Assembly (NCBI RefSeq): GCF_001677475.2
Contig: NZ_CP015229.1
Reading direction: 5' to 3' (one strand)
Length of the DNA: 64,000 nt
DNA from: Escherichia coli
GTDB lineage: Bacteria; Pseudomonadota; Gammaproteobacteria; Enterobacterales; Enterobacteriaceae
Part shown: positions 49,640 through 53,785 of the stretch, piece after piece
Layout of the letters: every line of letters begins with the position of its first letter
Numbering within the stretch: position 1 is the first letter of the stretch
Program-made: the position numbers and the translations under genes
Notes under the pieces: model-generated
What the model saw: the letters and a program-made list of their open reading frames with translations, nothing else
What the model was told of the DNA's origin: nothing
Database searches by the model: none

Positions 49640-49677
49640 ATGATGACGAAACACCCGACAGGAATATGTGTCGGGTG
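49640..49677 (-). terminator. terminator-like hairpin after ydeM
   Basis: Perfect 9-bp stem cacccgaca / tgtcgggtg with an 8-nt loop, then on the minus strand UUUCGUCAUCAUC. Confidence 0.45.
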
Positions 49678-49730
49678 CATTGTTAAGGTCATAAGAAGGA
49701 GGCTAAGACTGGAGCTAAGAGGGAGCGTTA

Positions 49731-50888
49731 TTAATTATTCTCCATTTGTCTTGCAACATCCATGATGTGGTAAAGCGGTACTCTGTTCTTAGCTAACTCC
49801 ACCATGGCGTTCAAATAAGGCACCATGGTTGAAAAAAGGATTTTATAACCTTCACAAAAATAGGAAACAGTCTCATTGTTTACTTTAGTAATACGATGCT
49901 TAGGACAACCGCCATTGCAGATAGGTTTATATGCACATTGCTGACATTTCGCTGAAATCCGTTTTTTTTGCGCTGTCAGTTGAACACTGTTCATCGTTTT
50001 GAGTTCAGATTTATTAATGTTTCCAATTTTGTACTGTGGATAGACAAAATGGTCGCATTCGTAAATGTCTCCATTACTTTCAACAACCAGATTATCCTTG
50101 CAGGACTCCTGGAAAATACAACTGGTATGCCCATTCCCCAAAAAACGGCTGACAAAGCTTTCAAACTGACGGATGAAAATTTCACCCACATCGTTTTTAA
50201 CCCATTGCATAAAAATGGTCGACATAAACTTGCCATAAGCCGTAGGAGGCACAGAAAAATCAATGATACGGAATGTGTTCTCACTATGACCACTGAAATC
50301 AATATTCGGCGTCCCGGTTTCGAGCAATTCGATAAATTGCATATGTTTACTGCCGATAGATTTTAAAAAATGATAAACCTCAAGAGGGTAATGGACATTA
50401 ACGTTATTAATGACGGTTAACGTATTAAACTCTACTTGATATGATTTCAGACGCTCGATGGCTGCTATCACTTTTGTAAAAGTACCGTTACCTGAATTAC
50501 TGCGTCTGTAACGGTCATGTAGCTCCTGGGGTCCATCGATCGAGATACCAACCAGAAACTCATGTTCTTTGAGAAAGGCACACCATTCATTATTCAATAA
50601 AATGCCATTCGTTTGTAATGCATTAAAAATACGTTTTTGGCCTGCATAGCGTTGTTGATAGTGAATAACTTTACGGAAAAAATCCAGGCCAGCCAGAGTG
50701 GGTTCACCGCCTTGCCAGGTAAAATAGACCTGATTGCCAGACGCTGCGATATATTGTTTGATGAACTCTTTCAGAGTGCTGTCATCCATCCATTTTTCAT
50801 GAGTAAACTGCGACTCTTTTTCAAGGTAAAAACAGTAATCACATTTGAGATTACATTGAAAACTGGAGGGCTTGGCTGTAACGTGCAT
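49731..50888 (-). CDS. ydeM: radical-SAM anaerobic sulfatase-maturating enzyme homolog
   Basis: ORF trimmed to ATG 50888 ([24 protein letters not shown]...), 385 aa; CxxxCxxC radical SAM motif and C-terminal Cys clusters ([18 protein letters not shown]). Confidence 0.85.
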
Positions 50889-50939
50889 CGCTATCTCGCT
50901 CAATAAGGCGGCGGAAAATTCCGCCGCATGAAGGTTTAG

Positions 50940-52622
50940 TTATTTCGCTTCGCTTAGTGCTTTCTTGATATTGTTAAACTTCTCCTGATTTACCTCGCTA
51001 AGCGGTGGCTGGCTGCTGTCGATAAACTCTCTTACCACGCCTTGCATCTCTTTAACGACCTGCGGATTGGCGGCGGCAAGGTTATCTTTTTGCTGTAGAT
51101 CCGTCAGTTTGTATAGACCTAACTGATTGTTTTCTACTGTATAGACAAGCGAATAATCGTTATTTCTCACCGTATAAGAGAATTGGCTTAAGTCCTCAGT
51201 GTTGGGGTTATGCGGGTAATCGTCTGACTGATGACGGACAAATTTGTGGTAATTATCCCAGAATGGAATATTTTCCTCGTCAAACCAGTGAGAATAAGAG
51301 GTTATCCAGGTCAGATTTTTATGTGGCTCGCCTTGTTTCTTATCTTGCAACCAGGGCAGCAAGGAAACGCCATCCAGCTTAAGGTCTTTTGGAATGCTGA
51401 TATCGGCTGCATCAAGAGCTGTCGGGTAGAAATCCATTGCGGAAATCAGCTTGTCATAATTACCGGGTTGAAGTTTTCCTTTCCACCACATAAACATTGG
51501 GGTGTGAGTACCGCCAGGATAGGTCTGACTCTTATAGCCTTTTTGCGCCCCGTTCAGCGGCAGAGGACCATCGATAACCGCACCATTATCGGAGGTAAAG
51601 AGAATAATTGTATTGTCATACTGTCCGTTTTTCTTCAGTTGTTCGAGAATGCGTTTTACACCCTGATCAACAGAATAAACGGAAGCGTAGTAGTTATCTG
51701 CCGTTTGACTACCGGTATTAAATTGCTTCTGATATTGCTCCGGTGCAGGATTATCATTTGGCAGGTGCGGAGCATTATAAGCCAGGTAAAGCATAAAAGG
51801 CTGGTCAAGTGTTTTGGCACGATCAACAACGCCAATTGCCTCATCGGTTAACTGATCGCTGATATAACCTTTTGCGGGGACGCGTTCACGATTTTTGAAC
51901 AGTGAAGGGGAGTTGTAATATGCCGTTCCTGCAGCGTGGAATCCCATAAAGTAATCAAAGCCACGGTTTTGCGGTTGCCATTCTTCCGCAGAAAATGTGG
52001 TGAAGTTGTCATGATAGTCACGCGTTTGTTTATCTTCCGGTACCGGCACATTACTGATTTTTGACAAGTGCCATTTACCTACTGCTGCAGTGTAATAACC
52101 ATGATTCTGGAATAATTCAGGCAAGAAAGTTTCTGTTAGCGGAATACCATCCTGAGCATCAGTATTGGAATAGACACCAAAGCGGGCGGGTGCTCGACCG
52201 GTCATTATTGCGGCGCGGGAGGGGCCGGAAACACCGTGCGCCACATAGCCGTTAGTAAAACGTACGCCTTCATCCATTAATGAAAGGAGCGTCGGCGTTG
52301 ATTTTTGCGCAGCTTCAATGGCTTTATCTATCCCTATTTTGTAGGTATCGACAACTTCACGATTTTCCATTGTTTTTGGGTCAAAAGATCCCTTATCAAA
52401 AGGAAGTTGTCCATAACCAAGATCATCCATGGTCAGTACGATAATATTTGGCTTTCCTTTGGTACTGTATTCAGTCGGCGTAAAGTCTGAGAAAGCAACG
52501 TTTGTTTTGGTTGCTTTCAGCTTTACATCATCTGCCGCATGAGCAGCAAATGCAGTCATACCAGATGCCAGTATCAAAGATATCGAGGTACTTACGACAC
52601 TTTTCTTTAATGCAGACTTCAT
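50940..52622 (-). CDS. ydeN: sulfatase (Ser-type active-site motif)
   Basis: ORF trimmed to ATG 52622 (MKSALKKSVVSTSISLILASGMTAFAAHA signal peptide), 560 aa; sulfatase signature S-G-P-S-R in HGVSGPSRAAIMTGR. Confidence 0.85.
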   Translation of the reverse strand: MKSALKKSVVSTSISLILASGMTAFAAHAADDVKLKATKTNVAFSDFTPTEYSTKGKPNIIVLTMDDLGYGQLPFDKGSFDPKTMENREVVDTYKIGIDKAIEAAQKSTPTLLSLMDEGVRFTNGYVAHGVSGPSRAAIMTGRAPARFGVYSNTDAQDGIPLTETFLPELFQNHGYYTAAVGKWHLSKISNVPVPEDKQTRDYHDNFTTFSAEEWQPQNRGFDYFMGFHAAGTAYYNSPSLFKNRERVPAKGYISDQLTDEAIGVVDRAKTLDQPFMLYLAYNAPHLPNDNPAPEQYQKQFNTGSQTADNYYASVYSVDQGVKRILEQLKKNGQYDNTIILFTSDNGAVIDGPLPLNGAQKGYKSQTYPGGTHTPMFMWWKGKLQPGNYDKLISAMDFYPTALDAADISIPKDLKLDGVSLLPWLQDKKQGEPHKNLTWITSYSHWFDEENIPFWDNYHKFVRHQSDDYPHNPNTEDLSQFSYTVRNNDYSLVYTVENNQLGLYKLTDLQQKDNLAAANPQVVKEMQGVVREFIDSSQPPLSEVNQEKFNNIKKALSEAK

Positions 52623-53023
52623 AAATGTTCCTCTTCTTATTGTACTTAATTCCAAAGTAATTTTACGAAGAGAAATAAGTGGATGTAAGTGAAGTTAGTC
52701 ACATAAAGAGATAGCAGATTTAGCTAAAAAAAGGGAAATAACAGTCCATAAAGCGTTGACATTACTTTTTGTTCTACTAAGTAATTTCTCGACGATAAAC
52801 AACTAATCTATTGATATTTAATAAATTATTGTATTTTACTGACAAAATGCCGAATTAAGATCATAAATAATCATGCAACAGGTTATGCAAATGCATAAAT
52901 ATGTGATGAATGTCACTTATTTATTTCAATAAATATATCGCCTAAAAACAACGCGGGGCAGGAAATGGCTGCCCCATTTAATTCTTACGTAGCGTGTGTG
53001 GTTGACTACTCGTTAGCAAATAA

Positions 53024-53785
53024 TCAAATAGCTAAAGCATTCATCGTGTTGCCCTTATTCATACCCGTGTGCCTTTGACAACGGTACTCCTTAGAAACTC
53101 TCTTTGGACTGTTGCCAAAATGTTTGCGGAACGCATAAATAAAATAAGATGTACTGGCATAACCACATTGTTCGGCAATTTTATTGACTGAACCTTCTAC
53201 GCGTATCAAATTTTTTGCGTGCTGCATTCTGGCATCTAAAAGAATCTGTGAGAATGTCGTTTGCTCTTGCTTAAGTTTTTTCTTCAACAGGCTTTCACTG
53301 ATGTACAGGCAGTCACAAATATCTTTCAGCTTCCATGGGTGCGCCAGCTTCATGTTGACAATATTTCTCACTTTCCCGGAAACGGATAGCACACCGTTAG
53401 TTAATAGTGTAATGAAACCTTTGCATGCGGCAAAAATAGACAGGCAAGAAAAAAGCAAAAGTTCTGAAAAATTATGATGATTGCGTTCTTCCGAGTTGAG
53501 ATAAGCAATCATTTCATTAAGCAATCCAGTCGGTACATTTGAAGCACGTAAAAACTTCGCAGGAACAGGCACCGTCACTGTCTGGATGTTAGTGCATTGT
53601 AGATATTTTTTAATGGTATTTTCATTAAATCCGATTTCTTTAAAATGCCGCTCATAAGGTTCAAAATGCGTACGAACAGCGTTATCTACCATCAAGATCT
53701 CGCCGTCAGAGAAGGCGTAATCTTTATCTAAAATGTTAGCGTTGAAGGCATGATGAATAAATATAACAGAACAAACGAGCGACAT
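53024..53785 (-). CDS. ydeO: AraC-family acid-resistance regulator
   Basis: 253 aa; C-terminal AraC HTH; matches YdeO as recalled. Confidence 0.88.
   Translation of the reverse strand: MSLVCSVIFIHHAFNANILDKDYAFSDGEILMVDNAVRTHFEPYERHFKEIGFNENTIKKYLQCTNIQTVTVPVPAKFLRASNVPTGLLNEMIAYLNSEERNHHNFSELLLFSCLSIFAACKGFITLLTNGVLSVSGKVRNIVNMKLAHPWKLKDICDCLYISESLLKKKLKQEQTTFSQILLDARMQHAKNLIRVEGSVNKIAEQCGYASTSYFIYAFRKHFGNSPKRVSKEYRCQRHTGMNKGNTMNALAI

Follow-up and report, generated by a model that had tools for sequence, protein, structure and literature searches.

The analysed stretch of E. coli DNA (64,000 nucleotides, hereafter the window) carries ydeM and ydeN side by side on the minus strand, and the segment singled out in a preliminary description of this DNA (49731-52622) runs exactly from the stop codon of ydeM to the start codon of ydeN. 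In the list of open reading frames, the two genes appear as minus-strand frames of 390 aa (49731..50903) and 571 aa (50940..52655), and the annotated ATG starts, at positions 50888 and 52622, give proteins of 385 and 560 aa, i.e. the lengths of K-12 b1497 and b1498, respectively. The neighbouring genes are also those of K-12 (yddA, yneP, ydeM, ydeN, ydeO, safA and ydeP). The pair had been described as intact, and this holds true: neither reading frame contains an internal stop, and the differences from K-12 are merely allelic, with two substitutions in YdeN (A23T and D295E; 99.6% protein and 99.2% nucleotide identity) and four in YdeM (A138T, P312S, M359L and K380R; 99.0% and 98.6%, respectively). 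From these nucleotide and amino acid divergences, it follows that most of the changes in both genes are synonymous. At a coverage of at least 80%, ydeN-ydeM was found in 5322 of the 5426 complete E. coli genomes. Since the interpretation first given to the two genes is that of the existing RefSeq annotation of b1498/b1497, the finding was already known: ydeN-ydeM is a long-annotated, ordinary E. coli pair and, taken as found, a textbook annotation of two y-genes that adds nothing new. The features of the locus are listed in Table 1.

Table 1. Features of the ydeN-ydeM locus, with positions counted from the first nucleotide of the window
Feature	Position	Strand	Description and basis
Terminator-like hairpin 3' of ydeM	49651..49678	-	10-bp stem followed by UUUCGUC
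ydeM CDS	49731..50888	-	385-aa radical-SAM/SPASM anaerobic sulfatase-maturating enzyme, no signal peptide; TIGR03942, PDB 4K36
Auxiliary-cluster cysteine region of YdeM	49854..50120	-	Eight Cys and Asp279; alignment to anSMEcpe
Radical-SAM motif C12-x3-C16-x2-C19 of YdeM	50832..50855	-	Aligns with anSMEcpe C15, C19 and C22
Intercistronic GC-rich stem-loop	50908..50927	-	GCGGCGGA-AUUU-UCCGCCGC; between ydeN stop and ydeM start, no strong U-tract
ydeN CDS	50940..52622	-	560-aa Ser-type S1 formylglycine-dependent sulfatase precursor; ORF, PF00884, K-12 match, AlphaFold model
Sulfatase signature S132-GPSR-AAIM-TGR	52194..52229	-	Regex match; Ser132 is the expected formylglycine residue
Predicted Sec-type signal peptide of YdeN (aa 1-29)	52536..52622	-	By eye; cleavage AHA/ADD
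Promoter-like site 5' of ydeN	52660..52689	-	-35 CTTACA, 18-nt spacer, -10 TAAAAT; 9/12 consensus matches, from consensus only
Predicted proximal CRP-like site	52688..52703	-	TGTGACTAACTTCACT; at most one mismatch, identical in K-12
Distal CRP site	52902..52917	-	AGTGACATTCATCACA (minus strand); 287 bp upstream of the ydeN ATG

YdeN spans the PF00884 Sulfatase profile in full (positions 1-301; E = 1.3e-70), and its AlphaFold model (pLDDT 91, pTM 0.89) displays the S1 sulfatase fold, matching S1 sulfatase structures with a Foldseek probability of 1.00. As previously noticed, a Ser occupies the formylglycine position, here within a complete S1 signature (S132-G-P-S-R) that is invariant, Ser132 included, across 13 YdeN orthologs; in the alignment, the same column is taken by a formylglycine-forming Cys in 21 of 26 subfamily relatives. 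YdeN itself contains no cysteine. Among 52 relatives, the ten canonical S1 active-site residues show little or no variation, with D66, D67, P134, R136, H185, H286, D345, N346 and K364 present in all sequences and K183 in at least 90% of them. The roles of these residues were assigned by motif position, according to general knowledge of the family. The protein was also said to be secreted, a prediction that agrees with the Sec-type features seen on inspection: its N-terminus, MKSALKKSVVSTSISLILASGMTAFAAHA, followed by ADD after the predicted cleavage, combines K2, K6 and K7 in the n-region, a hydrophobic core and A-H-A just before the cleavage site (-3 to -1); a twin-arginine (RR) motif was not seen in this N-terminus. 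A signal-like N-terminus is kept among YdeN orthologs, with a variable sequence, and the corresponding segment of the model has a pLDDT below 50.

As for YdeM, it passes the cut-off of NCBIfam TIGR03942 (anaerobic sulfatase maturase) with 504.2 bits vs. 349.45, over positions 1-362 of the 363-position profile, and it aligns over residues 4-360 with the Clostridium perfringens enzyme anSMEcpe (PDB 4K36; E = 2.6e-63). The radical-SAM motif reads C12-NLK-C16-DY-C19. Taking the list of cluster ligands of anSMEcpe from PMC5715301, the residue-by-residue alignment pairs YdeM C257/263/278/328 with C255/261/276/330 (Aux I), and C315/318/324/345 with C317/320/326/348 (Aux II). All 3 + 8 cluster-ligating cysteines of anSMEcpe (PDB 4K36-4K39) are thus kept, which bears out the CxxxCxxC motif and the C-terminal Cys clusters reported earlier, and both enzymes have an Asp after the third Aux I Cys. 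The two differ in their partners: anSMEcpe naturally acts on a Cys-type sulfatase, but the sulfatase encoded beside YdeM is Ser-type; moreover, YdeM scores 256 bits with the Clostridium-type equivalog NF010321, less than its cut-off of 441.

The order sulfatase-maturase is likewise found in Yersinia, Aeromonas, Salmonella, Anaerobiospirillum, a Proteus-type Enterobacterales genome and Iodobacter, and the maturase gene lies directly downstream in every YdeN-clade locus examined, with the exception of the second E. coli paralog. YdeN orthologs are 70-84% identical across orders, and the flanks of the pair are either unrelated or mobile (IS elements, integrases, resolvases and phage genes). The clade of YdeN is compact, with Ser in all members, and consists of a two-gene cassette moving between genera. 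With such flanks, its gene neighbourhood is uninformative as a clue to the substrate: in the loci examined, chondroitin lyases, GalNAc genes or a dedicated transporter never stood beside YdeN-clade cassettes, and no chondroitin/dermatan-sulfate or GalNAc utilisation locus was found for this clade, always present as a bare cassette, such loci being occupied only by Cys-type relatives. A porin gene was seen upstream of the cassette in Aeromonas and beside the second E. coli paralog, its presence being inconsistent elsewhere.

Among the closest known systems, AtsA/AtsB of Klebsiella pneumoniae likewise consists of a periplasmic Ser-type sulfatase whose gene adjoins that of a cytoplasmic, three-cluster radical-SAM enzyme converting Ser to formylglycine, AtsB oxidising the sulfatase Ser via C-beta hydrogen abstraction (PMC10114670). 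We infer from AtsB, and from the constant association with a sulfatase clade in which all members are Ser-type, that YdeM itself would oxidise Ser132. The Klebsiella gene order is presumably atsB-atsA, the reverse of the sulfatase-first ydeN-ydeM. Judging from its sequence, ydeN-ydeM is very probably a two-gene operon making a periplasmic, formylglycine-dependent sulfatase. The YdeN precursor would be synthesised with its Sec signal peptide and, still unfolded in the cytoplasm, would be the target of YdeM, a radical-SAM enzyme with three predicted [4Fe-4S] clusters, which would abstract a C-beta hydrogen from Ser132 in S-G-P-S-R and so yield C-alpha-formylglycine. As this chemistry is oxygen-sensitive, the active enzyme would be expected mainly in the anaerobic gut. 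Once exported, YdeN would hydrolyse a sulfate ester by means of the hydrated formylglycine, a divalent metal bound by D66/D67/D345/N346, and residues R136/K183/H185/H286/K364.

In agreement with the preliminary description, which gave the substrate of YdeN as unknown, PMC10878103 explicitly states that none has been reported. The subfamily to which YdeN belongs is mostly Cys-type, and its hallmark is an insertion of 27–40 aa between the DDxG motif and the sulfatase signature. The closest experimentally characterised relative found is PB_3285 of Photobacterium sp. QA16, experimentally shown to be a chondroitin-sulfate GalNAc-6-O-exosulfatase; the aligned sequence, P0407, is PB_3285, as its length (535 aa), 28-aa signal peptide, C109/P111/R113 and source name agree with the published ones (PMC8819143). 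YdeN is colinear with it, with 40% identity over 504 aa, 4 gap positions and an E-value of 4e-135, and phmmer links YdeN to the PB_3285 clade with 449 bits vs. 181 bits for the best PDB entry. Both proteins have a signal peptide, the subfamily insertion and the RDYHD motif (aa 201-205), which is common to the two clades and rare elsewhere. They differ in that PB_3285 is Cys-type (C109) and its clade is found in chondroitin/dermatan-sulfate and GalNAc loci, whereas YdeN is Ser-type and its clade a bare cassette. A strict sisterhood of the two clades was dropped, its neighbour-joining bootstrap being 53% (106/200), so that their relationship is claimed at the subfamily level only.

Three of the five subfamily relatives examined lie in chondroitin/dermatan-sulfate loci. 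The Plesiomonas relative of PB_3285, which has an adjacent anSME gene, adjoins a homolog of the 6J66 4-O-sulfatase, a KdgM porin and aga-type genes; that of Ancylomarina shares its locus with PL8 lyases and GH88, and that of Verrucomicrobium with PL8 lyases. As for the other two, one is accompanied by a fucosidase, DUF4861 and DUF1961, and the other is uninformative; the chondroitin association is therefore that of three relatives out of five, not of all. Sequence kinship with PB_3285 and these loci point to GalNAc-6-sulfate of host chondroitin sulfate as a testable substrate candidate for YdeN. The substrate would most probably be a small sulfated galacto-configured sugar, with reducing-end GalNAc-6-sulfate of chondroitin-sulfate fragments as the leading candidate, and once desulfated, the sugar would feed into ordinary catabolism. 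Weighing against this candidate are the bootstrap value of the sister grouping, the bare-cassette context of the YdeN clade and the fucosidase neighbour of one relative. In its full extent, the proposal that ydeNM is a self-contained, horizontally mobile cassette for the 6-O-desulfation of reducing-end GalNAc (perhaps Gal) in host chondroitin-sulfate/mucin fragments is put forward tentatively. If it were true, facultative anaerobes (E. coli, Yersinia, Salmonella, Proteus-type Enterobacterales and Aeromonas) would use ydeNM on fragments freed by primary degraders, in a catabolite-controlled cross-feeding on sulfated host glycans, and the Cys to Ser switch would make the sulfatase strictly dependent on the maturase transferred with it and on anaerobiosis.

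It is also conceivable, though doubtful, that the pair works as proposed but on another sulfated glycan, either Gal/GalNAc-4-sulfate, as with its S1_19 and S1_16 relatives, or mucin/keratan-type 6-sulfated Gal/GlcNAc. By both sequence and fold, the best solved relatives of YdeN are S1_19 carrageenan Gal-4-sulfatases (9HH2, 6B0J and 6PSM; E = 3e-52 to 1e-42; Foldseek E = 2e-35, TM ~0.8 on the target), not 6-O-sulfatases, followed by S1_16 (PMC6923384), and 39 positions are fixed differently between the YdeN and PB_3285 clades, which also favours a different glycan. However, the S1_19 enzymes are 25-29% identical to YdeN, are Cys-type, originate from marine algal-polysaccharide loci and have neither the 27-40 aa insertion nor the N-terminal extension, whereas PB_3285 is much closer, both in identity over the full length and in the bit score to its clade. 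Because of this low identity and of the missing insertion in the aligned structures, a placement of YdeN in S1_19 was not adopted. Mucin use was proposed in PMC10878103 from a likeness to the GlcNAc-6-O-sulfatase BT4656, but the latter (5G2V) is a weak match covering part of YdeN, and for an Akkermansia S1_19 enzyme, assays on mucin substrates revealed no activity (bioRxiv 10.1101/2025.09.11.675649). With PB_3285 acting on chondroitin GalNAc-6-sulfate (PMC8819143), the mucin-derived substrates envisaged at the outset are thus not the best-supported lead. The Akkermansia enzyme is structurally the nearest subfamily member from a mucin specialist.

Upstream of ydeN, the 115 bp that precede the ATG show 100% identity to K-12. 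The centre of the proximal CRP-like site is located ~42 bp upstream of the transcription start predicted from the -10, which corresponds to a class II geometry, and this site is one of just two CRP-site matches with at most one mismatch in the 64 kb window. The distal site has its counterpart in a K-12 site with its centre at 1582815, for which CRP binding in vitro gave a Kd estimate of 1.8 nM (PMC12871828), and ydeN is included among the CRP SELEX targets (PMC3105977). In the presence of arabinose, AraC binds in the region upstream of ydeN, and deletion of araC leads to over-expression of ydeMN (PMC3738151, PMC10878103). A search for the canonical AraC half-site TAGCnnnnnnnTCCATA with at most two mismatches gave 40 matches vs. 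48 expected, none of them upstream of ydeN, so the published binding could not be mapped. Under stress, ydeN drops along with malE, lamB, xylF and treC (PMC10746267, PMC2731931), and anaerobic cultures in rumen fluid contained the YdeN protein (PMC3936929). Transcription would be controlled by CRP-cAMP and repressed by AraC with arabinose; the two CRP sites and the reported AraC repression suggest sugar rather than sulfur scavenging.

At the transcript level, the centroid fold of the intercistronic stem-loop has an energy of -16.3 kcal/mol, and 7 loci from as many genera have a stem-loop at this position, its sequence differing between them. It may act as a partial terminator or as a stabiliser of the mRNA 3' end, and would probably keep the maturase at lower levels than the sulfatase. 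The hairpin 3' of ydeM reaches -20.2 kcal/mol (z = -3.8), with 1 of 200 shuffles folding as well. Both hairpins were found by folding, the consensus terminator scan having called neither the one after ydeN nor the one after ydeM, the latter because of its short T-run.

The sugar-related regulation bears on a further reading, which is improbable, namely that YdeN/YdeM is an AtsA/AtsB-like arylsulfatase system for sulfur scavenging, which would free inorganic sulfate from aromatic or other esters during a shortage of sulfate and cysteine. The architecture is the same as in Klebsiella, with a periplasmic Ser-type sulfatase and a radical-SAM maturase (PMC10114670, and family knowledge), the top NCBIfam match of YdeN is a model named 'arylsulfatase', and the cassette comes without a sugar transporter or glycosidase. 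Against this, YdeN obtains 124 bits with the arylsulfatase equivalog, the cut-off of which is 481, and is therefore not a member; P. aeruginosa AtsA (1HDH) is distant (E = 7e-15), the nearest relatives of YdeN are carbohydrate sulfatases, and the regulation found for ydeNM, unlike a control by sulfur supply, involves CRP, AraC and a co-variation with sugar-uptake genes, no link with sulfur starvation having been found in the literature. Besides the arylsulfatase model, those of choline-sulfatase and PehA also left YdeN far under their cut-offs.

A Klebsiella Ser-type sulfatase, foreign to E. coli, reportedly matured in this host only with co-expressed AtsB and stayed immature otherwise, from which YdeM would be silent or inactive under aerobic laboratory conditions. 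That the pair is intact but cryptic in E. coli, too weakly expressed or with an inactive YdeM, and gives no active sulfatase in nature, is nevertheless unlikely, even if a K-12 sulfatase phenotype is absent from literature reports and delta-ydeN had no phenotype in one reported assay (PMC10653809): the pair is present in the large majority of the complete genomes, its substitutions relative to K-12 are mostly synonymous, none of the catalytic and cluster-binding residues is lost, transcription is regulated and the protein detected, and the cassette is still 70-84% identical after transfer between orders.

For the preferred reading, i.e. a periplasmic sulfatase matured by its neighbour, the remaining value of the locus is that of an orphan-enzyme problem: an intact, conserved and regulated sulfatase system in E. 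coli. New in this analysis are the cassette clade, the mostly Cys-type subfamily with its insertion, the chondroitin loci of the relatives, the kinship with PB_3285 and the CRP sites. With the link to a characterised GalNAc-6-O-exosulfatase and to chondroitin loci of relatives, a wide search for substrates is reduced to a handful of disaccharides that can be bought. Should this link be borne out, E. coli would gain a defined part in the scavenging of sulfated host-glycan fragments in the anaerobic gut, and a role of YdeM as a maturase that oxidises Ser would receive its first functional support. The tryptic peptide of YdeN suited to the formylglycine check is FTNGYVAHGVSGPSR, in which the change from Ser to formylglycine corresponds to -2 Da.

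The ydeN and ydeM genes are neighbouring open reading frames on the minus strand of the window (ORF list), and the range 49731-52622, to which they had been assigned in the preliminary description, coincides exactly with their span: it opens at the stop codon of ydeM and closes at the start codon of ydeN. The pair is E. coli b1498/b1497, named in RefSeq and already known; reportedly, a study of aslB/ydeM deletions has dealt with it. No internal stops were found in either gene, and the surrounding gene order is that of K-12 (gadB, pqqL, yddB, yddA, yneP, ydeM, ydeN, ydeO, safA, ydeP and the ydeQRS fimbrial genes). Compared with K-12, YdeN has two residue changes and YdeM four, at nucleotide identities of 99.2% and 98.6%, so that most changes are synonymous. 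By megablast, the ydeN-ydeM stretch is present in 5373 of 5426 complete E. coli genomes, with at least 80% of it covered in 5322, and all matched genomes carry the annotations "sulfatase-like hydrolase/transferase" (ydeN) and "anaerobic sulfatase maturase" (ydeM). As for the strain itself, the best match among the 5426 genomes is only 97.9-98.4% identical over 25-kb stretches of positions 1-49700 (99.3% over ydeNM), and the source lineage is thus without a close representative in that set. Positions 1-25000 include a multi-copy element (median of 28 places per genome), and the best records match only 90% of this part.

Features of the ydeN-ydeM locus and its products (window positions, or residues where indicated)
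Feature	Position	Strand	Remarks
ydeN	50940-52622	-	560 aa, from annotated ATG
ydeM	49731-50888	-	385 aa, from annotated ATG
yneP (K-12 b4747)	49643-49765	+	Small ORF, 40 aa, intact; overlaps ydeM 3' end on opposite strand
Terminator-like hairpin behind ydeM	49651-49678	-	z = -3.8 (folding)
Intercistronic stem-loop	50908-50927	-	8-bp GC-rich stem; centroid fold -16.3 kcal/mol
Proximal CRP-like site (predicted)	52688-52703		Roughly 42 bp upstream of the start deduced from a promoter-like -10 element
Distal CRP site	52902-52917		Counterpart of K-12 site
Bidirectional terminator-like hairpin	52954-52976		GGGGCAG...CTGCCCC, T-runs on both sides; just downstream of ydeO
YdeN signal peptide	MKSALKKSVVSTSISLILASGMTAFAAHA		Predicted cut before ADD; Sec features, without twin-arginine motif; by eye
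YdeN subfamily insertion	aa 72-108
YdeM radical-SAM cluster	C12, C16, C19		anSMEcpe C15, C19, C22 (alignment)
YdeM Aux I cluster	C257, C263, C278, C328		anSMEcpe C255, C261, C276, C330 (alignment)
YdeM Aux II cluster	C315, C318, C324, C345		anSMEcpe C317, C320, C326, C348 (alignment)

Every testable feature of S1 sulfatases is present in YdeN. The Pfam Sulfatase profile is matched over the full length (E = 1.3e-70), the signature is complete (S132-G-P-S-R-A-A-I-M-T-G-R; tryptic peptide around Ser132: FTNGYVAHGVSGPSR), and the active-site set, located by motif position, consists of D66, D67, S132, R136, K183, H185, H286, D345, N346 and K364, all of which, apart from position 132, vary little or not at all among 52 aligned relatives. 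YdeN contains no cysteine. An AlphaFold model built from this 52-sequence alignment (pLDDT 91, pTM 0.89) is confident from residue 50 onwards, and the predicted fold matches S1 sulfatase structures. The start of the mature protein, residues 37-53 (ATKTNVAFSDFTPTEYS; positions 52464-52514, minus strand), is predicted to be unstructured (pLDDT <50) and is near-invariant in 13 orthologs from several orders, with 12 of 17 positions strictly invariant; such a conserved disordered tail suggests a role in binding or recognition, e.g. for the maturase, export or a partner.

YdeM likewise displays every testable feature of the TIGR03942 maturases. It scores 504 bits against this NCBIfam "anaerobic sulfatase maturase" model (cut-off 349), lacks a signal peptide, and aligns over residues 4-360 with anSMEcpe, the solved Clostridium perfringens maturase (4K36; E = 2.6e-63), whose cluster ligands were assigned according to PMC5715301; both enzymes moreover have an Asp right after the third cysteine of Aux I. 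In AtsB, the founding member of the family, the serine of the Klebsiella sulfatase is oxidised via C-beta hydrogen abstraction by a 5'-deoxyadenosyl radical (PMC10114670) and, by analogy, Ser132 would be oxidised by YdeM itself. The features read from the sequence in the preliminary description (S-G-P-S-R with Ser at the formylglycine position, secretion of YdeN, YdeM cysteine sets, intact pair) were all found to be correct, and its interpretation as a Ser-type sulfatase with an anaerobic maturase is the accepted one, as in the RefSeq naming.

The general mechanism very probably runs from transcription through Ser132 maturation and Sec export to periplasmic sulfate-ester hydrolysis. The ydeNM genes would be transcribed under cAMP-CRP activation when arabinose is absent and, in the cytoplasm, Ser132 of the unfolded YdeN precursor would be converted to formylglycine by YdeM, which would rely on S-adenosylmethionine and three [4Fe-4S] clusters and therefore require low oxygen. 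YdeN would be exported by Sec and, in the periplasm, would hydrolyse the sulfate ester of a small sulfated sugar able to cross the outer membrane.

Orthologs of YdeN with 70-84% identity were found in Leminorella, Salmonella, Citrobacter, Yersinia, Proteus-type Enterobacterales, Aeromonas, Shewanella, Iodobacter and Anaerobiospirillum, with Ser132 and its motif invariant throughout. The sulfatase precedes the maturase in every YdeN-clade locus examined, while the surroundings are unrelated from locus to locus and frequently mobile (IS elements, integrases, resolvases, phage genes); ydeNM thus acts as a self-contained cassette that spreads by horizontal transfer. In some E. coli strains (contigs L006:2615-5544 and L007:1497-4426) there is a second, Ser-type paralog of 565 aa (P0066), 77% identical to YdeN, with a porin gene immediately upstream and no adjacent radical-SAM gene, so that it would rely on the chromosomal ydeM in trans. 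The Aeromonas ortholog also has an upstream porin gene (L004:5156-6235).

The substrate is much less certain than the general mechanism. The best single lead, a tentative one, is the reducing-end GalNAc-6-sulfate of chondroitin-sulfate fragments. An exhaustive profile search revealed a sharp gap beneath the YdeN clade, the next relatives being at most 45% identical; these share an insertion of 27-40 aa between the DDxG motif and the signature, absent from the solved S1_19 structures. Twenty-one of 26 are Cys-type, which makes the serine of YdeN a minority state in a mostly Cys-type subfamily. A search with the Plesiomonas member retrieved P0407, identified as Photobacterium PB_3285 because its length (535 residues), its signal peptide of 28 residues and C109/P111/R113 fit the description in PMC8819143. 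PB_3285 acts specifically on the 6-O-sulfate of GalNAc at the reducing end of chondroitin oligosaccharides, among them the unsaturated disaccharide delta-C (PMC8819143). Across 504 residues, with four gap positions, YdeN and P0407 share 40% identity (E = 4e-135), and the score of 449 bits to the PB_3285 clade is far above the 181 bits to the best PDB structure. Both clades come out as sisters in a neighbour-joining tree, with a bootstrap of only 53% (106/200). They share an invariant R-D-Y-H-D (aa 201-205), rare in other subfamily members, and are separated by 39 clade-fixed differences.

Genomic context was looked up for five subfamily relatives. The Plesiomonas relative clusters with a sulfatase that hardly differs from the crystallised chondroitin/dermatan-sulfate 4-O-endosulfatase 6J66 (E = 4.6e-287), a KdgM-type porin, a radical-SAM/SPASM maturase 44% identical to YdeM, an aga-type PTS, AgaS-like and KbaZ/KbaY-like genes and a kinase. 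The Ancylomarina relative is placed after chondroitinase-ABC-type PL8 lyases and a GH88, that of Verrucomicrobium is flanked by PL8 lyases on both sides, a fourth is grouped with a fucosidase, and the context of the fifth is uninformative. Considered by itself, the compact P. shigelloides locus (L009:1-15349), among whose genes are DeoR, DUF2264, aldolase and PfkB kinase genes, resembles a full system for the use of chondroitin-sulfate disaccharides, here in an enteric gammaproteobacterium.

Against the chondroitin lead stand the modest identity, the weak bootstrap, the action of the closest solved structures on Gal-4-sulfate, and the finding of no chondroitin or GalNAc genes beside YdeN-clade members at the loci examined. 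Because the YdeN clade lacks this locus context, its membership in the PB_3285-type 6-O-exosulfatases is not established. About equally likely is another sulfated galacto- or gluco-configured sugar, with a 4-sulfate as in S1_19/S1_16 or the 6-sulfates of mucin or keratan; concerning mucin, suggested in the preliminary description, the mucin specialist Akkermansia, however, has a single S1_19 enzyme, and this showed no activity on the mucin substrates assayed (bioRxiv 10.1101/2025.09.11.675649). What the analysis adds is a narrower substrate hypothesis that can be tested cheaply, together with a view of ydeNM as a mobile Ser-type cassette that arose from a Cys-type subfamily associated with chondroitin.

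Only two sequences in the 64-kb window fit the CRP consensus when a single mismatch is tolerated, and both are inside the 401-bp ydeO-ydeN spacer. In vitro, CRP binds the K-12 counterpart of the distal site (Kd estimated at 1.8 nM; PMC12871828), and CRP SELEX targets include ydeN (PMC3105977); the proximal site has a predicted class II geometry. Both are kept in K-12, with 100% identity over the 115 bp that adjoin the ydeN ATG and 12 differences in the 285 bp beyond them. AraC binding upstream of ydeN requires arabinose (PMC3738151), and ydeMN is over-expressed by a delta-araC strain in the mouse gut (PMC10878103); no canonical AraC half-site was found upstream of ydeN. Under acid or envelope stress, ydeN drops along with malE, lamB, xylF and treC (PMC10746267, PMC2731931). 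Such regulation is that of a gene for a secondary carbon source and not of one that responds to sulfur starvation. The ydeNM pair would work like Klebsiella AtsA/AtsB, but YdeN is no arylsulfatase by the curated model, and sulfur scavenging from aryl sulfates is improbable. That the pair is cryptic and non-functional is unlikely to the same degree; YdeN protein has been detected in anaerobic rumen-fluid cultures (PMC3936929).

E. coli and a Proteus-type locus each have a gene of the AraC family upstream of the sulfatase, in the former the full-length ydeO (53024-53785) and in the latter a 123-aa HTH_AraC fragment (L013:7959-8330), which hints that such a regulator may once have belonged to the cassette. 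The bidirectional hairpin divides ydeO from the ydeN promoter region.

The ydeN-ydeM gap is 51 nt long, and its stem-loop has no strong U-tract. A GC-rich stem-loop is found right behind the sulfatase stop codon in seven of seven loci from seven genera, namely the window and L003, L004, L005, L008, L012 and L014 (Yersinia, Aeromonas, Salmonella, Anaerobiospirillum, Proteus-type and Iodobacter), with a different stem sequence in each of these six. Differing stems at one place suggest a conserved structural element setting the sulfatase:maturase ratio, possibly as a partial terminator or mRNA 3' stabiliser that would hold the catalytic maturase below its substrate. At the other end of ydeM, the terminator-like hairpin encodes the N-terminus of yneP (HPTGICVGC), which differs from K-12 at 5 of 40 residues and is far more divergent than YdeN (2/560) or YdeM (4/385).
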